Program-made: the position numbers and the translations under genes | Assembly: GCA_902563505.1 (NCBI GenBank) | Contig: CACEXK010000003.1 | Location: forward strand, 19,076 to 83,075 | Source of the DNA: an uncultured Alphaproteobacteria bacterium | GTDB lineage: Bacteria; Pseudomonadota; Alphaproteobacteria; Methylaequorales; Methylaequoraceae | Reading direction: 5' to 3' | Length of the DNA stretch: 64,000 nt | Notes under the pieces: model-generated | Seen by the model: the letters and a program-made list of their open reading frames with translations, nothing else | Told to the model about the DNA's origin: nothing | Database searches by the model: none | In this document: one piece after another, positions 1 through 13,824 of the stretch | How the letters are laid out: each line of letters starts with the position of its first letter | Position numbering within the stretch: position 1 is the first letter of the stretch

Positions 1-77
1 ACCAATTTTCGAAAGTATTTCAGTCTTAGCCGCCATTTTTCACCTACTTAATTTAAACGACTAAAACGAAGCTTCAT

Positions 78-1643
78 TTACTGGAATAATACCAGAACAT
101 TTTGCATCGTTCTTGACGCTTGAGCAACCATATTCATAGCAGATTGTTGAAGAATTTGAGATTTGGACAGATTTGCTGATTCTAAAGCAAAATCTGCATC
201 AACGATCCTTGCTCTTGATGCTCTTTGATTTTGAGACACGTTAGTTAAATTATCTATCACAACATTCATTCTACTCATAATTGCACCAAATTTTGCTCTT
301 TCCATATGAATTCTATCAAGTGCTCTATCAACCACTTTAAGTGCGTCAACCGCACCAGTTAGGGTTCTAAGGTCAATTGTCGAAACTTTGTTAAGAGTTG
401 CAGCACCTGGACTAGCATCATATAATCCTCCACCGGCATTACCAACAATGGTAAAAGTCTGAGAGGAATGAAATTTAAGTTGTCCTGCAAATCTGATTGA
501 GTCACTATTACCACTATTGTGATCTTCATCCAATACATTTTTTGCTGTGCCTTCGACATCTTGATCCATATTCATTGCTGTACATATCATTTTAGTGGTA
601 ATTGCGTTACCTACACTTGCAAAATTAAGATTTTGAATTGCGATATCTTCTCCTTCATCTTGAACCATAATTATATTTGATCTGTCAGCACTTAAAGTAC
701 ATCTAATTCCAGTTGTTCCTGTATATGCATTAAGTTGATCTCTCAAATTAGTTAGATCTGAAGTTGCTGCGGTTGTACCTAGGGTAACGGTTGCAGAAAT
801 TGCTTGTTTCGAGGCATTCTTACCAAAAATATCAAAACCAACAACATGATTTCCAGCCGCAGCCGTGCTTAGCATTTCAATCTTGACTGTTGTCATTGCA
901 GTTGCACTAACTCCTGTTTTGTCAAATTTAGCATTAACTAATTCAACTATTTCTTTAGCCGTGTTGTTATCAGCGATGTTTATCGTTGAAGTACCAACCA
1001 AACCCGTAATTGTAATATTATCATCAGCATCAATTAAACTATTAATTCCAGCCGCAGTTCCACCTGTGGTACCCTCAGCAGCCAAACTATTTGCTGAGCC
1101 TGCAGATTCTTTGACTTCTGTTTCACTTTGATAAGCTCCAAGGTTATCTGTTCTTAAGTTTGCTACTGAAATAACGGCTTTTTCTCTTTCATTGGAACCA
1201 ATCTGAAAGCGTCTATCAGCAAATGTTCCATCAAGAACCGCAATTTCATTAAAAGTAGTATCCCTGGCAACCCTATCCATTTCTTCTAACAATTGGTTTG
1301 CTTCGGTTTGTAAATAAATTCTTTGTTCAGCATTTAAGATGTCGGTAGCAGCTTGGATTGACAATTCACGAATTCTTTGGAGAGCTTGGGAGTGTTCGTC
1401 TAGTGCACCTTCGGCTACTTGAGCCATTGATAAAACATCAGCAGCATTTCTAATTGACATGTCAAGTGCTCTGATGGTTGCTGTCATTCTGTCACTGATG
1501 GCTGCTCCTGCAGCGTCGTCACCAGCACTATTAATTCTTTTACCTGAGGAGATTCGCTCCATTGCACGAAGCATATCCCTTTCAGTTTTAAGGAGACTCT
1601 TCATTGAAGCTGAAGTTCCCATGCTTGTATTTATTCCCGGCAT
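78..1643 (-). CDS. fliC: Flagellin, long form (521 aa)
   Basis: The N-terminus (...RISSGKRINSAGDDAAGAAISDRM...) and C-terminus (...RIVDADFALESANLSKSQILQQSAMNMVAQA...) are canonical flagellin D0/D1 helices. The central ~250 aa form a T/S/G/A/N-rich variable domain that contains a flagellin-IN-like segment. Confidence 0.93.
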   Translation of the reverse strand: MPGINTSMGTSASMKSLLKTERDMLRAMERISSGKRINSAGDDAAGAAISDRMTATIRALDMSIRNAADVLSMAQVAEGALDEHSQALQRIRELSIQAATDILNAEQRIYLQTEANQLLEEMDRVARDTTFNEIAVLDGTFADRRFQIGSNEREKAVISVANLRTDNLGAYQSETEVKESAGSANSLAAEGTTGGTAAGINSLIDADDNITITGLVGTSTINIADNNTAKEIVELVNAKFDKTGVSATAMTTVKIEMLSTAAAGNHVVGFDIFGKNASKQAISATVTLGTTAATSDLTNLRDQLNAYTGTTGIRCTLSADRSNIIMVQDEGEDIAIQNLNFASVGNAITTKMICTAMNMDQDVEGTAKNVLDEDHNSGNSDSIRFAGQLKFHSSQTFTIVGNAGGGLYDASPGAATLNKVSTIDLRTLTGAVDALKVVDRALDRIHMERAKFGAIMSRMNVVIDNLTNVSQNQRASRARIVDADFALESANLSKSQILQQSAMNMVAQASRTMQNVLVLFQ

Positions 1644-1689
1644 CTTATATTCTCTCTGTTAAATTCATATAATTTTCCGAAAGAAATTC

Positions 1690-1705
1690 TGCAAATTAAG
1701 TGCCA
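1690..1705 (-). promoter_or_regulatory. Sigma-54 (RpoN) -24/-12 promoter for the long flagellin gene
   Basis: The minus strand reads TGGCAC-TTAAT-TTGCA, a full match to TGGCAC-N5-TTGCW. The C of the -12 GC is at 1691, which predicts a TSS near 1679 and a ~36-nt leader before the ATG at 1643. Confidence 0.8.
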
Positions 1706-1742
1706 AAAAAAAAGGAGAGAGTAAAAAAAACTCTCTCCTTTT
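1705..1742 (-). terminator. Rho-independent terminator after the 265-aa flagellin gene
   Basis: An 8-bp stem, GGAGAGAG (1714-1721) paired with CTCTCTCC (1731-1738), has a 9-nt loop. On the minus strand it is followed by a run of 9 U (plus-strand A9 at 1705-1713). Confidence 0.8.
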
Positions 1743-1767
1743 AAAACATACTATATGTAGTGGTTCG

Positions 1768-2565
1768 TTATTGTAAAACCGCCAATATAGCTGATTGTGC
1801 ATTATTTGCTTGAGCAGCCATTGACAAAGCAGCCTGGTTTAAAATGGCGTTTTTAGTCAAATCTGCTGTTTCAAGAGCAAAGTCAGTGTCTATAATTCTA
1901 GCACTTGCAGCTGCCATGTTAGCTGAAGTAGCAGAGGCAGCACCCTGAAATGCTTTTAAGGCTGTTAAGTCAGCAGCAATGTTTCCTAATGCTTCTGCAA
2001 CCTTTCCGAGCATTGTTTTTGCCGTAGCATCTGCACCAGCAGCTGTTGAAATACCAGCCATCTGAGTAATTGCAATGTTTGGACCTACAGCAGTAGTGTT
2101 TGCAGTAAGACCGGCATAAGCAACGTTTTTCTGTAATGCAGCGTTAGAGTCTACAACTGGAACTTCGTTGAAGTCCGTATTGTCTAACAATGCATCGATT
2201 GCATCACCAATTGCAGCTGCTTCTGAGTTAAGTGCAGCAATTTGGTTACTATCTAAAAGCGCAGCATTATCCGCTGCGATTCCAAGTTCGTGCAATCTTA
2301 TACCCATGTTTGCAACTTCTAAAAGAACACTTTCACCCATCTGAGCGAATGAAATACCGTCTTCGATATTCCTAGTTGCAGTAGCGTAAGATTTACTCAT
2401 TGCATTTAGTGCTTGACCTGCTGAGTGACCAGCAGCATCACCACCATACATAGCTCTTACGCCTGTTGATAATCTAGCAATGGACTCATTCATACCGTGT
2501 CGAGCTTTACTAGCTGCGGCAGCGGCCATATTAGCGCCAATTGCAATATTAGAAACTGAAGGCAT
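1768..2565 (-). CDS. Short flagellin (265 aa, D0/D1 only), tandem paralogue 1
   Basis: The N-terminus (...MNESIARLSTGVRAMYGGDAAG...) and C-terminus (...RIIDTDFALETADLTKNAILNQAALSMAAQANN...) are flagellin-like. The size matches short alphaproteobacterial flagellins. An AAAAGGAGATAA Shine-Dalgarno region precedes the ATG. Confidence 0.88.
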   Translation of the reverse strand: MPSVSNIAIGANMAAAAASKARHGMNESIARLSTGVRAMYGGDAAGHSAGQALNAMSKSYATATRNIEDGISFAQMGESVLLEVANMGIRLHELGIAADNAALLDSNQIAALNSEAAAIGDAIDALLDNTDFNEVPVVDSNAALQKNVAYAGLTANTTAVGPNIAITQMAGISTAAGADATAKTMLGKVAEALGNIAADLTALKAFQGAASATSANMAAASARIIDTDFALETADLTKNAILNQAALSMAAQANNAQSAILAVLQ

Positions 2566-2590
2566 TTTTTATCTCCTTTTCTTTGTTATT

Positions 2591-3394
2591 CTATTGAATA
2601 ACGGTTAATATTGCCTGCTGCGCATTGTTCGCTTGCGCGACCATAGCCATTGCAGACTGATTTAATATTGCGGCTTTTGTCAAATTAGCCGTTTCAAGAG
2701 CATAGTCCGTATCCTGAATTCTAGCAGCAGCAGCTTTTAAGTTAGCCGAAGAGGAAGCAGCCACAGCTTGGAATCCCTTAAGTGCAGACATACCAGCGGC
2801 AACCTTACCAAGTGAATTGGCAACATTACCTAGTGCAGAATCCGCACTACCGTCAACACCACTTGCTCCGGTAATTTTGTCTGTGTTTTTAATATCAATT
2901 GTCGTTGCAGTACCAACTGTGAAAGTTCCACCTTGGTCATCAACACCAATTGCCACAGCACCACCAGCAGCAACCGAGCCAACTAATTGTACTCCGTTAA
3001 ATTTGACGTTATCAGCTATACCATCGATTGCTTTACCAATGGCAGTTGCTTCAGAGTTTAGAGCTGCTCTGTCAGAATCCGTCATTAATTGAGTATTCGC
3101 AAATTGAATACCTAATTCACGCAATCTGGTAGTTAAAGCAGCAATTTCAAGCAACAAAGATTCTGCTGATTGAAGAAATGAAATACCGTCTTCGCAATTC
3201 CTTGCTGCAACGGCAAAACTTGCCCCTCGTGCCCCTAATGAATTAGCAATTGCCTGACCAGCAGCATCACCGCCATACATTGACCTGATACCAGTGGATA
3301 ACCTTGCAATTGATTCATTCATCTGGTGACGTGCCTTTGAAGCGGCAGCGCCAGCCATAGCTGCACCAACGGCGATATTAGAAACTGAAGGCAT
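2591..3394 (-). CDS. Short flagellin (267 aa, D0/D1 only), tandem paralogue 2
   Basis: Same architecture as 1768-2565. The termini are nearly identical (MPSVSNIA.GA.MA.AAASKARH.MNESIARLSTG...; ...DTDYALETANLTKAAILNQSAMAMVAQANN...). Only 25 nt separate it from the downstream paralogue, so the two are probably co-transcribed. Confidence 0.88.
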   Translation of the reverse strand: MPSVSNIAVGAAMAGAAASKARHQMNESIARLSTGIRSMYGGDAAGQAIANSLGARGASFAVAARNCEDGISFLQSAESLLLEIAALTTRLRELGIQFANTQLMTDSDRAALNSEATAIGKAIDGIADNVKFNGVQLVGSVAAGGAVAIGVDDQGGTFTVGTATTIDIKNTDKITGASGVDGSADSALGNVANSLGKVAAGMSALKGFQAVAASSSANLKAAAARIQDTDYALETANLTKAAILNQSAMAMVAQANNAQQAILTVIQ

Positions 3395-3583
3395 GTTATC
3401 TCCTTTTGTAAATCATTAACATACAGTTTATATCCATCAACTTGATGTCCATTAACCTAATTACTGTAATAGATAACGACTTGCCGTAAAAATGTTTAGT
3501 CGATGTTGTAATAAAACATAATGATTATTAGAATGGATTGGGGATGTTGATTTATAAAAAAAAAATATATATAAATATTTCAA

Positions 3584-4093
3584 ATGGCAACTGAGAAATT
3601 ATACTGCCCAGAATTTGTCTACCAGATTTGTGTGGGTCTCACAGTCTATGATTTTGTAACCAAAGAATTTACTTTACCTATGGTTTCAAAACAATATGCG
3701 TCGGGTATAAGTGATCATTATAATGAGGTTTTACCTGAGGAACTCAGTTTTCCTGCTGAAGAAATTCTTCGTTTTATGTCTGAACAACAAAAGCCAAAAT
3801 ACGAAGCACACGAAAAGGCAAATTTCTTTGTATACAATCAATTAAAATTTGATGGGACAAAGGGTGAAAGAAAACTTAAGGGGATATTTGGTAACGCTTT
3901 TAGCGGTGAAAAAACAAAAAAATATAATGCTGAAAAAACTATAAAGGTTTTTAAAGCATTTACATTTTCTTTAAGATCAGGTGCAGTTGATCGTGCTCCA
4001 GCAGGTTGGTTGATAAAAAGTGAGAATAAAGAAGATTTACTTCAACTTGGGGATATTATTACTAAAGAAATGAAAATCGACGATCTACTTTAA
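3584..4093 (+). CDS. Hypothetical protein (169 aa) embedded in the flagellar locus
   Basis: A clean ORF on the opposite strand to all surrounding flagellar genes. I recognise no motif. Its stop overlaps the flgL stop within the tetranucleotide TTAA (4090-4093). Confidence 0.5.
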   Translation: MATEKLYCPEFVYQICVGLTVYDFVTKEFTLPMVSKQYASGISDHYNEVLPEELSFPAEEILRFMSEQQKPKYEAHEKANFFVYNQLKFDGTKGERKLKGIFGNAFSGEKTKKYNAEKTIKVFKAFTFSLRSGAVDRAPAGWLIKSENKEDLLQLGDIITKEMKIDDLL

Positions 4094-5373
4094 GATATCA
4101 TATCAAAAAGATTCAATTGAGAAATTCTCACAAAAGCTTTTTGAGATGCTTCTTGAGATGTCATCATTGATTGGAGTTCGGTTACTAGTTCAGATAAATC
4201 TGCGTCAGCTAATTCACTAACATCTTTTTCAACCAGGATTTTTCTCTCAAGCATAATATCACTCTGTCTTTCAACAGAATTCATTCTGGCTCCAACCTTA
4301 GCCCTCTGATTGGCAAGATGATTTTGTATGACTCGCATTTCATCTAACCTACTTGCAATAGTTTGGTCAAAATCAAAAACAGTTTGCTGTCTACCAATAC
4401 CATTTCCAGCAGCATCAATTGGTTGAACTGTAAAAAATGATGTAGGTGTTTCTTGAGATTTAGAAATGTTTGGTATTTCTAACTTACCTAATTCAATGTC
4501 ATAGGCGTAATCACTTACTAACTTAAGAGTTTTATTTGAATCCTCAAGCGTTGCAGTAATATCAAGATCAGCTGCATTAATTGCTGTTGCAACATCTGAT
4601 AAATCACTACCTGTTATATCCAGTGAAAAATCTGCAGACTTTGATCCAGATGTAACTGTAAAAGCGTATGTTCCAGGATCTTGATTGGTTAGAGTGATTT
4701 TAGCCATACCTGTTCCTGCTTTAGCTGCTTCGACACCAGCATTTGCCGTTCTTATCGAGCGACTAATATTATCGACCGCTGCAAATAGATCTGTACTAAC
4801 TCCAGAACTAGTAACAATGTCTTGAAAAACTGTGGCTCCATCTATAGTAGATTCCATTAATCTACTTTCAGAAATCTGAAGATTTAAAACTCCACGATCA
4901 CCTTTGTATTCAATTTCACCTGCTGCATTTACAATGAAAGGTTGAGTTTTAGATTTATAACCCGCGTATATGTAACTCCCTCCAGAATCTTTAGTGTTAG
5001 AAATTGACATCAATTCCTTTTTTAATTCATCAAATTCCAATGCAATTGCCTCTCTATCAACAACCGATAAAACATCATTAGCTGCTTGAATAGCTAATTC
5101 ATTACATCTCGTAAAAATATCTTTGGCTCCTTGGATTGTTGCATCCATTAACTTTAATCTATCAAGTGCAAGATTCGTATTATCAAGAAATTGATCAATC
5201 CTACTGGTAACATCTTTTAAACCAGAAAGTTCAACTGCTCCAACAGGGTCATCAGATGCAAAAACAATATTTTTTCCCGATGAAATCTTGGCTTGAATAC
5301 CTTGTATATCCTCCATATTTTTAGAGAATTGTCTTACCTGCTGGTCATTAAATAGCCGATTACTTATTTTCAT
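4090..5373 (-). CDS. flgL: Flagellar hook-associated protein 3 (hook-filament junction), 427 aa
   Basis: The N-terminus (MKISNRLF...QAKISSGKNIVFASDDPVG) and a flagellin-like C-terminal helix are present, and the gene sits directly after flgK. It is longer than enteric FlgL (~317 aa) because of a central insertion with an IN-like segment (LSDVATAINAADLDITATLED...). Confidence 0.88.
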   Translation of the reverse strand: MKISNRLFNDQQVRQFSKNMEDIQGIQAKISSGKNIVFASDDPVGAVELSGLKDVTSRIDQFLDNTNLALDRLKLMDATIQGAKDIFTRCNELAIQAANDVLSVVDREAIALEFDELKKELMSISNTKDSGGSYIYAGYKSKTQPFIVNAAGEIEYKGDRGVLNLQISESRLMESTIDGATVFQDIVTSSGVSTDLFAAVDNISRSIRTANAGVEAAKAGTGMAKITLTNQDPGTYAFTVTSGSKSADFSLDITGSDLSDVATAINAADLDITATLEDSNKTLKLVSDYAYDIELGKLEIPNISKSQETPTSFFTVQPIDAAGNGIGRQQTVFDFDQTIASRLDEMRVIQNHLANQRAKVGARMNSVERQSDIMLERKILVEKDVSELADADLSELVTELQSMMTSQEASQKAFVRISQLNLFDMIS

Positions 5374-5383
5374 AACTTAAATT

Positions 5384-5399
5384 AGCAAATTTCGTGCCT
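5384..5399 (-). promoter_or_regulatory. Sigma-54 -24/-12 promoter in front of flgL
   Basis: The minus strand reads AGGCACG-AAAT-TTGCT, with only the first T of TGGCAC mismatched and the extended G after CAC also matching. The C of the -12 GC is at 5385, exactly 12 nt before the A of the flgL ATG (5373). Confidence 0.7.
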
Positions 5400-5447
5400 A
5401 GTCCTTAATTTCTTGTAAAACCCTTGAATTAGATCATTCAATTTTTA

Positions 5448-8400
5448 TTATTTTGATACTACCATCATTAATGATTCAAATAGTTCTCTTGCAGTTTGAA
5501 TAATTCTCGCGTTAGCTGAAAATGCTTGTTGAAACTGAATCAATGCTGCAGCTTCCTCATCTAAAGAAACCCCTGCACTTTCATCTTCTTTAGCTTTAGC
5601 TTCATCCAAGGATGCTTGTGCATCCTCAACACTCAACTGGCTACTTCTTACATTTGAACCAATTTCAGCAGCAGTTGCATTGAAAATATCCTGAAAACTT
5701 CCTGAGTTAATTCCGTTAACATCAGCCTCTTGTAAATCTATCATTTGAAGAATATTTCTATTATCTCCAACACCATCATTATTATTTGTTATGGAAAATG
5801 AATCTTTAACTGATGCCTCACCTACTAATCTCAATGTTTTGCCAGAAGCCGTGATAATTCCGCTATCAGGAATGAGTCGTGTTGCAATTGAATGATTTGT
5901 ATCTGCATCTAAAATCTCGACTTTTTTATTATTATCAGAGTCTATTACTAACTTAAGTTCTGATGTTTCTTGAGGTGGTAAAATTTCACCATAGTTTGAT
6001 GCAATTTTCTTTGAACCATTCCCTGTCATTACAATTATCAAATCCTCTGGAGGCAGATTAGAAATAGATAAATTGTTTCCAATTAATGATTTTACACTAT
6101 TTGCTGGAACCCCAATATTAACTGCTTTTGAAGCTTTTGCATCTGAAGCAAATGATTGAACTCTGATTGAATCGTCAATAACATTTACATGAGTTTGATT
6201 AGTTTTAAAACCGAAGCTTTCGGACCAAGTTCCATTAGAAGCATATTTTGGGTTTTCCATTACAATCTGACCTTTGTCTGCTTGTTTTACAATTGAAATT
6301 TGCATCTTTCCATCACTCACTTGCTCTAATTCAATCGAAATACCTAAGTTAGTTACAGGTGATCCCCCAGGAAAATCATCATTATAGATAGCACCAACAA
6401 CGCTTGTAAATTTATCACTTGCATGTCCTCCACTACCGCCAATTGTCATAGTTACTGGAGTATCAGCAGTAGCGTTAGCATAAGATGATGCAAGTTTAAA
6501 TGTATTTGCACCGGTTACTACTGCGAAATAGGAAGCGTCATTGCTAAGTCCATTTAATGCCGAAGATGTATCATAATGAAGTTTATCTCCAGTTTTAAAA
6601 CCATGAGCGTTAGCTGTAATTTGGTTTGCTGAAACAGCTGAGGTTGTATTCACTGTACGAGTATTACAACTTAAACCTATGTCATAAGGTTTTTCACGAC
6701 CGTAAGTAAAATGCATATGAGTTGTTGAAACTGCAGGTGTTGCACCAGACACAGTCAGATTATTGATTTCTGTTCCAGTAATTGTTGTTGAAACTTCATC
6801 CGGTTCCATTCCAAATAATTTTGCATTTTCATCATTGGTAGTATCAACTGCAAATGAAAATTGAGACGCTGATATAGTTTTTCCAGCAGATATGTAAAGA
6901 CTTTTGCCAGGATCAAAAGTATCAGCACTGTTACCACCTATATTACCAGTACCAATTGTAAGAACTGATGGCGTATCATTTGTAGCTAAGGTATAAGAGC
7001 TTGCTAGTTTAAAATTGTGATCGTCAACCTTTACAGCATAATATGTTTCTCCATCAACCAAACCTGCTCTCGGACTTGAAAATGAATCGGACACACTTCC
7101 TCCAGAACTTCCGGTAATGGTTATGGCTGTACCTGAACCAGCATTTCCGCTAGTCGTAGCCAGCTTGAATGAATTAGCATCAACTGCTATGGCAAAATAT
7201 GTTGTCCCACTTGTTAACCCAGATATAGGAATTGAACTTCCAGCTTTGTAAACAACTGGGTCTTGTGTAGAAAAACCATGGTTTGGAGCGGTTATCGTAA
7301 CAGTTGAATTAAACTGAGTTGTATCTACTATTACCTTCTCAGCAGCATTATAAACCACAGCATCGCCTGTTTCTAGTCCATGCTCAGTCGATGGTATTGT
7401 TTGAGTTCCGTTAAGTGAAGTTGTATTTATTGTAATTGGATCAGGGTCATCAAAATATGCATTCAACAAATTTTTCTCACCCCCAGATACGACCACCTCA
7501 CCATTTTCCATTGTCAATGTATAAGTTAAACCATCATGATTAACTTTAAAACTTGAGCCATCAATTGGAATAGATGCTATAGATTTACCAGAAATTTCAA
7601 TAGAAGGACTATCTGCTCTGAGAGCCTCAGCTATTTTTTTAGAAACTTCACCTGTAGATAAATCATCAAAAGCTGAAACATCTACAGTTGTGCCAAACGC
7701 AGAACCAGTATCAGTTGCTGGAAGAGTCAAACCATAAGAAACTATAGAACTATTTGAGGACAAACCATCCGGGTGTCCAGCTGAAAAATCACCATCAAGT
7801 ACAAGTGGCTTAATTGTTTTAATCTCACCTGTGGAAGAAGTCGTAACATTTAAAAAACCATCTTTGAATGCATTTTGTGTTGCCGTGACTGTTGTACTTC
7901 CTCCATCATTAGAAGTTGTGATTGCAGAAGAAGATTCTATTTGCAATTCACCACTAAGTCTTGCAGCCTTATAACTATTTCCATCTAGATCAACTGTGAC
8001 TGGTGAGGAAAAACTTGAAAAATCACTTTTCAAAACCTCTAGAGTAATTGGGTGCGTGAATTTGTCTGTTGCGCTGCCTCCTGAACCACCAACAGTTATT
8101 GCAGTTCCAGACTTGGCATTTGCCAATGAACTGGCAAGCTTAAAATTATTATCATCTTGATAAATCGCATAATATGTTTGTCCATTTGTAAGGTTTCCGA
8201 GTGCTGTCCCTCCAGCTGTATAAATAACTTTATCCCCAGTACTAAACCCATGAGAAGTATAAGGTATTGTAACACTAGCACTGCTTCCTAAGCCAGTTGT
8301 GTTCTTTGTCAAGGTATCTGAAGTTGAAAAATTTGAAATTTGGATATCATCACCATCTTTGTTTTCTAGGATTAGATGTGATTTGTCACTTGAAAGAATT

Positions 8401-13808: not shown

Positions 13809-13824
13809 TGCAAACCTTGTGCCA
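13809..13824 (-). promoter_or_regulatory. Sigma-54 -24/-12 promoter for flgG (flgGHIJK[L] operon)
   Basis: The minus strand reads TGGCAC-AAGGT-TTGCA, a full consensus match. The predicted TSS is near 13798. The ~26-nt leader contains an AAGAGGA Shine-Dalgarno before the ATG at 13772. Confidence 0.8.

Follow-up and report, generated by a model that had tools for sequence, protein, structure and literature searches.

In Vibrio cholerae, the flagellin gene flaA belongs to the sigma-54/FlrC class III, whereas flaBCDE are sigma-28 genes of class IV, and in Campylobacter jejuni and Helicobacter pylori flaB is transcribed with sigma-54 and flaA with sigma-28. Among Alphaproteobacteria, the fljK and fljL genes of Caulobacter vibrioides depend on sigma-54 and FlbD and their translation is controlled by FlbT/FlaF, Caulobacter not being known to have a FliA tier, and the single Fla1 flagellin of Cereibacter (Rhodobacter) sphaeroides is sigma-28-dependent. 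A classic sigma-28 promoter reads TAAA-N15-GCCGATAA, with GCCGAT as the -10 element. For C. jejuni, the sigma-54 and sigma-28 motifs are given in PMC3847290. In Shewanella putrefaciens, the adjacent genes flaA and flaB have individual promoters and a two-tier control that was shown experimentally: FlaA is made independently of FliA but requires RpoN and FlrA, FlaB depends on FliA and is gated by FlgM, the order of expression places FlaA next to the hook, and FliS, too, can be produced in the absence of FliA (Kuhn et al. 2018, PMC6299084). The Fla1 system of C. sphaeroides uses RpoN2 with FleQ and with FleT, which is devoid of a DNA-binding domain, and fleT itself depends on FleQ/RpoN2 (PMC11999139).

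The locus described here comes from an uncultured marine alphaproteobacterium (genome of 1.27 Mb, 29.7% G+C, 87% complete); the window, i.e., the whole stretch of DNA that was analysed, is 64 kb long and carries short and long flagellin genes side by side on the minus strand. We consider it likely that the 124-nt spacer between short flagellin 2 and the long flagellin holds two ordinary, separate signals, a terminator and an RpoN promoter, which would divide the flagellins into two tiers. The features are as follows:

Positions 78 to 1643, minus strand: long flagellin of 521 aa with an outer domain (Pfam Flagellin_N, Flagellin_IN, Flagellin_C).
Positions 1768 to 2565, minus strand: short flagellin 2 of 265 aa, D0/D1-only, last gene of the short-flagellin operon (Pfam Flagellin_N/Flagellin_C; synteny kept in relatives).
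Positions 2591 to 3394, minus strand: short flagellin 1 of 267 aa, 25 nt upstream of flagellin 2 (Pfam).
Positions 1710 to 1742, minus strand: predicted intrinsic-terminator hairpin of 13 bp with the core GGAGAGAG/CUCUCUCC (-21.4 kcal/mol, z = -4.9).
Positions 1705 to 1713, minus strand: U9 tract of the terminator, its last U being the first base of the promoter (from the sequence; T8-T9 or TTTATTTTT in relatives).
Positions 1690 to 1705, minus strand: predicted RpoN (-24/-12) promoter TGGCAC-TTAAT-TTGCA (exact consensus, matrix rank 1 of 2,607, conserved in 10 relatives).
Positions 3475 to 3498, minus strand: sigma-28-like promoter TAAAC-N13-GTCGTT of the short-flagellin operon (conserved in relatives).
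Positions 56 to 80, minus strand: sigma-28-like TAAA-N15-GTCGTT in the 40-nt spacer before fliD (motif scan).

The TAA stop codon of the 265-aa flagellin lies at 1770-1768 and the ATG of the 521-aa flagellin at 1643-1641. The relatives show throughout the same order, flgL, an opposite-strand ORF, short flagellin 1, short flagellin 2, long flagellin and fliD, and their long flagellins, 68-86% identical to this one, all belong to uncultured marine Alphaproteobacteria (single-cell genomes and MAGs); among public contigs, none encoding the exact 521-aa protein was found.

The original prediction had placed a clean hairpin followed by U9 behind the 265-aa flagellin gene, and its coordinates and sequence are correct. 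The hairpin sets in 25 nt past the TAA and its core stem joins GGAGAGAG (1738-1731) to CTCTCTCC (1721-1714); the stem has five G-C pairs, is extended by A-U pairs to 13 bp (1742-1710) and is followed at once by the U9. None of 200 shuffles folded into an RNA as stable, and the hairpin was also detected by a terminator scan, while a search of positions 1-5600 against the known RNA families of Rfam gave nothing near the gathering score and, at the terminator, just generic hairpin likeness. A hairpin and U-tract follow the short flagellin in 10 of 10 orthologous loci with differing stem sequences, which vary by paired changes, e.g., GGAGAAGG/CCTTCTCC, GGGGAAAG/CTTTCCCC and AGGGAAAG/CTTTCCCT (-12.6 to -22.6 kcal/mol); the orthologs were folded one by one, their stems being out of register in the MAFFT alignment, and the paired changes are hence given as examples and not as a formal covariation count. 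Hairpin and U9 look like a genuine Rho-independent terminator, the efficiency of which is a prediction from these elements.

That the last U of the tract opens a full-match promoter, TGGCAC-TTAAT-TTGCA, was likewise confirmed in the sequence: the final T of the T9 run is the T of TGGCAC (1705-1700), which is followed by TTAAT (1699-1695) and TTGCA (1694-1690), and 16 of 16 specified positions match the RpoN consensus TGGCAC-N5-TTGCW with GG and GC exactly 10 nt apart. The distance from the end of the motif to the ATG of the long flagellin is 46 nt, or 47-48 nt counting from the -12 GC, and the figure of about 48 nt given before was a fair one. A full match had been judged unlikely by chance, and the counts agree, with two exact consensus sites in the window against 0.04 expected and six in the genome against about 0.45 expected from local shuffles. 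When one mismatch was allowed and GG/GC were kept fixed, the whole genome yielded 27 matches, 15 of them intergenic (binomial P = 3e-13), where intergenic stands for the 5% of the genome that has no cover in a crude ORF map; in a leave-one-out test, with a weight matrix derived from the remaining 15 intergenic sites, the long-flagellin site came first of all 2,607 GG-N10-GC positions in the genome. Among relatives, TGGCAY-N5-TTGCA is kept 35-46 nt before the ATG in all ten loci with an intact upstream region (L013, which ends at a contig edge, and L014, which has a different upstream sequence, stand outside this count), and across these ten genomes GG, GC and the final A are invariant while the spacer bases vary. 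The claim that the long flagellin is under its own RpoN promoter is supported by this rank and conservation and by the presence of rpoN and enhancer-binding proteins, and the motif looks like a genuine sigma-54 promoter. As sigma-54 promoters have their start site about 12 nt after the GC (C at -12), transcription would begin at 1679-1677, in agreement with the TSS near 1679 of the original prediction.

A single rpoN was found, full-length with 484 aa (TIGR02395, 428 bits against a cut-off of 277) and with region I, the core-binding domain and the RpoN box ARRTVAKYR. It is accompanied by two enhancer-binding proteins (EBPs), both with the GAFTGA loop (PF00158 at 235 and 226 bits): EBP1 (384 aa) combines a non-canonical N-terminal domain with an AAA+ domain and has no HTH, and EBP2 (357 aa) combines an AAA+ domain with a Fis-type HTH. 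Both rpoN and an enhancer-binding protein, which the original prediction had proposed to look for in the rest of the genome, are therefore present; against the NCBIfam equivalog models, FlbD included, neither EBP reached a cut-off. The two EBP genes are divergently transcribed (L003, G000 C5:30544-32950), and 32 nt upstream of the one without the HTH lies a weak sigma-54-like site, TGGTAAGCTTCTTGCT.

The promoter element had also been said to recur before flgG and flgL, which holds exactly for flgG and with one mismatch for flgL:

Positions 13,809 to 13,824, minus strand: second exact RpoN consensus of the window, 36 nt before flgG (motif scan).
Positions 5384 to 5399, minus strand: RpoN-type site AGGCAC-N5-TTGCT (AGGCACGAAATTTGCT, one mismatch), 10 nt before the flgL ATG (motif scan).

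At flgL, a spacing of 10-12 nt and the T at -11 are kept in 8 genomes. The genome-wide matrix and motif scan, another proposal of that prediction, revealed strong intergenic enrichment upstream of flagellar genes. The genes behind sigma-54 sites are mostly flagellar and comprise the long flagellin, flgG, flgL, flgF, flgB, flhA, genes for a FliS paralogue, an SLT-domain protein, a Cys-rich protein and two methyltransferases, and glnB, a classic RpoN target; the regulon could be defined from these sites, a clean set of about 16. At flhA (G000 C9:22520-22623), an ATG 11 nt after the sigma-54 site opens a 31-codon upstream ORF (MKKFFLKSRVSS...), the stop of which overlaps the flhA start, and promoter and ATG recur in at least six relatives.

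Some of the sigma-54-type sites form a family-wide class of their own, with the last base 10-11 nt before a genuine ATG and without a Shine-Dalgarno sequence; the genes concerned are flgL, flgF, glnB and those for the SLT-domain protein, the two methyltransferases, the Cys-rich protein and a TolC-like protein:

Positions 5384 to 5399 of the window (flgL), and G000 C9:16556, C13:7665, C13:17279, C3:104449, C5:8475, C16:5240 and C6:67839: short-spacing sites.

The pattern GGCAY-N5-TTGCT-N10-11-ATG occurs 45 times in 13 genomes, against 0 occurrences of the reversed-pattern control and 3 with a spacing of 14-15 nt. An ATG 10-11 nt downstream was thus seen at 45 TTGCT sites (of a total of 69 counted as TGGCAY-N5-TTGCT, or roughly 69-80 once the AGGCAY sites of the flgL type are included) versus 17 of 81 TTGCA sites. 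Short spacing goes preferentially with TTGCT (a T at -11), whereas leadered sites have TTGCA (Fisher P = 0.0014 in this genome), and the long-flagellin promoter falls into the leadered TTGCA class in 10 of 10 genomes. Because with a spacing of 10-11 nt transcription would begin at the A of the ATG or right beside it, the short-spacing sites suggest leaderless mRNAs; in a limited check of the start-site mapping literature, we found no description of leaderless mRNAs driven by sigma-54.

The short flagellins carry a promoter of another type. CTAAAC-N13-GTCGTTWA is present upstream of short flagellin 1 in all nine relatives that have the region, and the same motif recurs before fliD, a fourth flagellin and two FliS paralogues (the latter three beyond the left edge of the window). 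These sites, TAAA-N14/15-GTCGTT, deviate in the -10 element, which reads GTCGTT and not GCCGAT, and their number in the genome is not above that in shuffles (13 vs 9), the intergenic ones clustering in the flagellar region. A fliA gene (TIGR02479, 200.5 bits against a cut-off of 189.6) stands in a row flhA-flhF-flhG-fliA, and flgM is also present. From its conservation and the clustering in the flagellar region, the short-flagellin promoter is probably a sigma-28 promoter, and since the short flagellins have a conserved sigma-28-like promoter of their own, the two flagellin classes would belong to different regulatory tiers. Behind the long flagellin no terminator was found, and the sigma-54 transcript therefore probably continues into fliD.

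Between the sigma-28-like promoter and the Shine-Dalgarno sequence of the short flagellins (3395-3470, minus strand), there are the repeats GTTAATGGA / GTTGATGGA / GTTAATGA, of which two or three are conserved in relatives; they look like sites for a GGA-binding regulator, and csrA and fliW were not found in the genome. To the left of the window (L023, G000 C3:9000-21000), we observed three FliS paralogues (122, 144 and 129 aa), each scoring over the Pfam cut-off, together with the fourth flagellin (256-260 aa). Sigma-28-like sites precede the 122- and 144-aa FliS and the fourth flagellin, and the 129-aa FliS lies behind a sigma-54-type site, TGGCATACCAATTGCA, that at least six relatives share without change. 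Each flagellin class may thus have a FliS chaperone of its own, regulated in the same tier as the flagellin.

The predicted leader of the long-flagellin mRNA and a block upstream of the terminator are conserved as well:

Positions 1644 to 1679, minus strand: predicted 36-nt 5'UTR, with its start near 1679-1677 (sigma-54 geometry; conservation in the alignment of relatives).
Positions 1748 to 1777, minus strand: conserved box TTTTACAATAACGAACCACTACATATAGTATG, overlapping the short-flagellin stop codon (TATAGT invariant in 8 close relatives).

The leader is nearly invariant among relatives, with the blocks GGAAAATTATATGAA ... ACGGAGAGAATATAAG (Shine-Dalgarno). It includes a 7-codon upstream ORF (1644-1666, minus strand; ATG AAT TTA ACA GAG AGA ATA TAA) that stops 1 nt before the long-flagellin ATG; of 10 relatives, 8 have this ORF, in which codons 2 and 4 vary at the third position, while L015 has lost it and L010 has ATG-TGA. 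CsrA, FliW and FlbT, possible leader regulators, were not found in the 87%-complete genome. The box can be read in two ways, as an imperfect palindrome, ACTA-CATA-TAGT (ATACTA-N4-TAGTAT, perfect in L015), or as a sigma-70-like TTTACA-16-TATAGT. Its TATAGT stands at -50 to -52 from the GG in all 8 close relatives, and in L010 and L011 a homologous block lies at -70 to -80, downstream of their terminator; the box, found with the long-flagellin promoter in all relatives, thus travels with the promoter and not with the terminator. A general enhancer role for the ATATAGTAT box was rejected because the box occurs just three times in the genome and none of the other 15 sigma-54 sites has it upstream. 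An enhancer site for the long-flagellin promoter was not found, the sole conserved upstream box being one that does not recur at other sigma-54 promoters. A pairing of box and leader (CAUAUAGU with AUUAUAUG, seen by eye) was dropped, since the changes of the box in L008 and L009 are not compensated in the leader.

The relatives also show how closely terminator and promoter need to be joined. In the two most distant ones (L010 and L011), the terminator comes right after the stop codon and the promoter about 170 nt farther on, which argues that the two are independent modules. In L012 and L016, a strong terminator follows the gene, and about 200 nt downstream a weakened hairpin stands directly before the promoter. 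This second hairpin belongs to what appears to be a decayed duplicate of the short-flagellin 3' end (L012:6159-6465 and L016:6159-6473; CTATATTG ... ATATAGTATG), and the remnant looks like what is left of a third short-flagellin copy after loss or rearrangement. Judged from this comparison, the sharing of one base is a reflection of the compact spacer, and we read it as neither a functional unit nor a composite device.

Other explanations of the spacer differ in how much they make of the box and the hairpin. We regard it as doubtful that the palindromic box (about -80 from the start site) acts as an enhancer for the HTH-bearing activator, the A/T-rich hairpin DNA of the terminator as a bend and the leader with its upstream ORF as a translational control; if true, 3' end, enhancer, terminator, promoter and leader would form one overlapped module, typical of a streamlined genome. 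An unlikely alternative takes TTTACA-16-TATAGT (1777-1750) as a working sigma-70-type promoter in tandem with the sigma-54 promoter downstream. Its RNA would, in the compact clade, start right at the base of the hairpin and be halted by that hairpin, which would amount to attenuation or futile initiation; in L010/L011, which have no hairpin in between, it would yield a second, longer flagellin mRNA. Ten of the 12 sigma-70 positions match, and TATAGT is invariant in the 8 relatives amid varying bases, but sigma-70-like hexamer pairs are no commoner than in shuffled sequence (12 vs 11.9; 47 vs 52.7) and the -35 element falls in the conserved VLQ-stop codons of the flagellin. L010/L011 have homologous -35-like and -10-like blocks, spaced by 16-17 nt, between terminator and promoter, and L012/L016 retain the box within the decayed gene remnant; nevertheless, it is hard to see a use for a transcript that meets a terminator at once, and a promoter does not need the palindrome that the box also forms.

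We think it quite unlikely that hairpin and T-tract are mainly promoter architecture, with termination secondary, either as a bent or UP-like A/T element that aids the closed complex or as a means to bring a box-bound activator (about -80) to the polymerase. L012/L016, whose true terminator is located about 200 nt farther upstream but which keep hairpin, T-tract and box by the promoter, would agree with it, except that their promoter-proximal hairpins are much weaker (-12.6/-13.5 vs about -20 kcal/mol) and sit in an apparently decaying duplicate of the flagellin 3' end, as fits a terminator that has lost its gene. The shift of the box by about 20 nt between clades, roughly two helical turns, and the Fis-type HTH of EBP2 are also in its favour; L010/L011, however, have no promoter-adjacent hairpin, and the other sigma-54 promoters of the genome have neither such a hairpin nor a long T-tract. 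Finally, it is very improbable that TGGCAC-N5-TTGCA has no function and that transcripts reading through from the short-flagellin promoter account for expression of the long flagellin. Intrinsic terminators seldom reach an efficiency of 100%, but here a strong, conserved one is in the way, and the motif is a perfect consensus that ranks first in the genome, keeps GG/GC invariant in 10 genomes at 68-86% protein identity while spacer bases change, and recurs before other flagellar genes in a genome with rpoN and EBPs.

On the preferred reading, a terminator and a separate RpoN promoter, the short-flagellin operon would start at the sigma-28-type promoter near 3475-3498, and the polymerases of this late, probably strong promoter would terminate in the U-tract. 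Immediately downstream, RpoN-RNA polymerase would wait as a closed complex on 1705-1690, and initiation near 1679-1677 would occur only once one of the two AAA+ EBPs hydrolyses ATP and remodels the complex, giving an mRNA with the 36-nt leader, the long flagellin and probably fliD. The terminator would stop read-through from occluding the sigma-54 complex or from tying the long flagellin to the late tier. The long flagellin may then share an earlier sigma-54 tier with rod, hook-junction and export genes, the short flagellins belonging to the late FliA/FlgM tier; by analogy with S. putrefaciens, the long flagellin would come before completion of the hook and the short ones would follow once FlgM is exported. 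We infer insulation, start site, EBP dependence, termination efficiency and expression order from the arrangement of these signals. Such tiers would predict a filament that is built in sequence, as shown in Shewanella. The junction itself is ordinary biology, with a terminator that would shield a downstream activator-dependent promoter in a compact genome, and the analysis provides a regulatory map of the flagellar locus in an uncultured, streamlined marine alphaproteobacterial family, in which sigma-54 and probable sigma-28 promoters alternate.

As in S. putrefaciens, one FliS paralogue here has a sigma-54-type site. Unlike in that species, the gene order is reversed, and with the sigma-28 genes upstream a terminator would be needed directly before the sigma-54 promoter; moreover, the flagellin classes differ greatly in size (265 vs 521 aa). 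The proposed division, with one flagellin under RpoN and the rest under FliA, would resemble that in Vibrio, Campylobacter and Helicobacter, and the order flhA-flhF-flhG-fliA is that of polar flagellates, whereas the host is an alphaproteobacterium and the sigma-28-like -10 element is GTCGTT and not CGAT. Compared with Caulobacter, which likewise is an alphaproteobacterium with a -24/-12 promoter at a flagellin gene, FlbT was not found here and the FlbD equivalog cut-off was not reached. With C. sphaeroides Fla1, the locus shares an alphaproteobacterial host with a gamma-type flagellar system and, by domain content, an EBP pair like FleQ/FleT, one with and one without a DNA-binding domain, the HTH-less EBP lying, like fleT, behind a (weak) sigma-54-like site; in contrast to the four rpoN genes of C. 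sphaeroides, one was found here. Different sigma factors for different flagellins are a known scheme, and this locus is probably a compact example of it.
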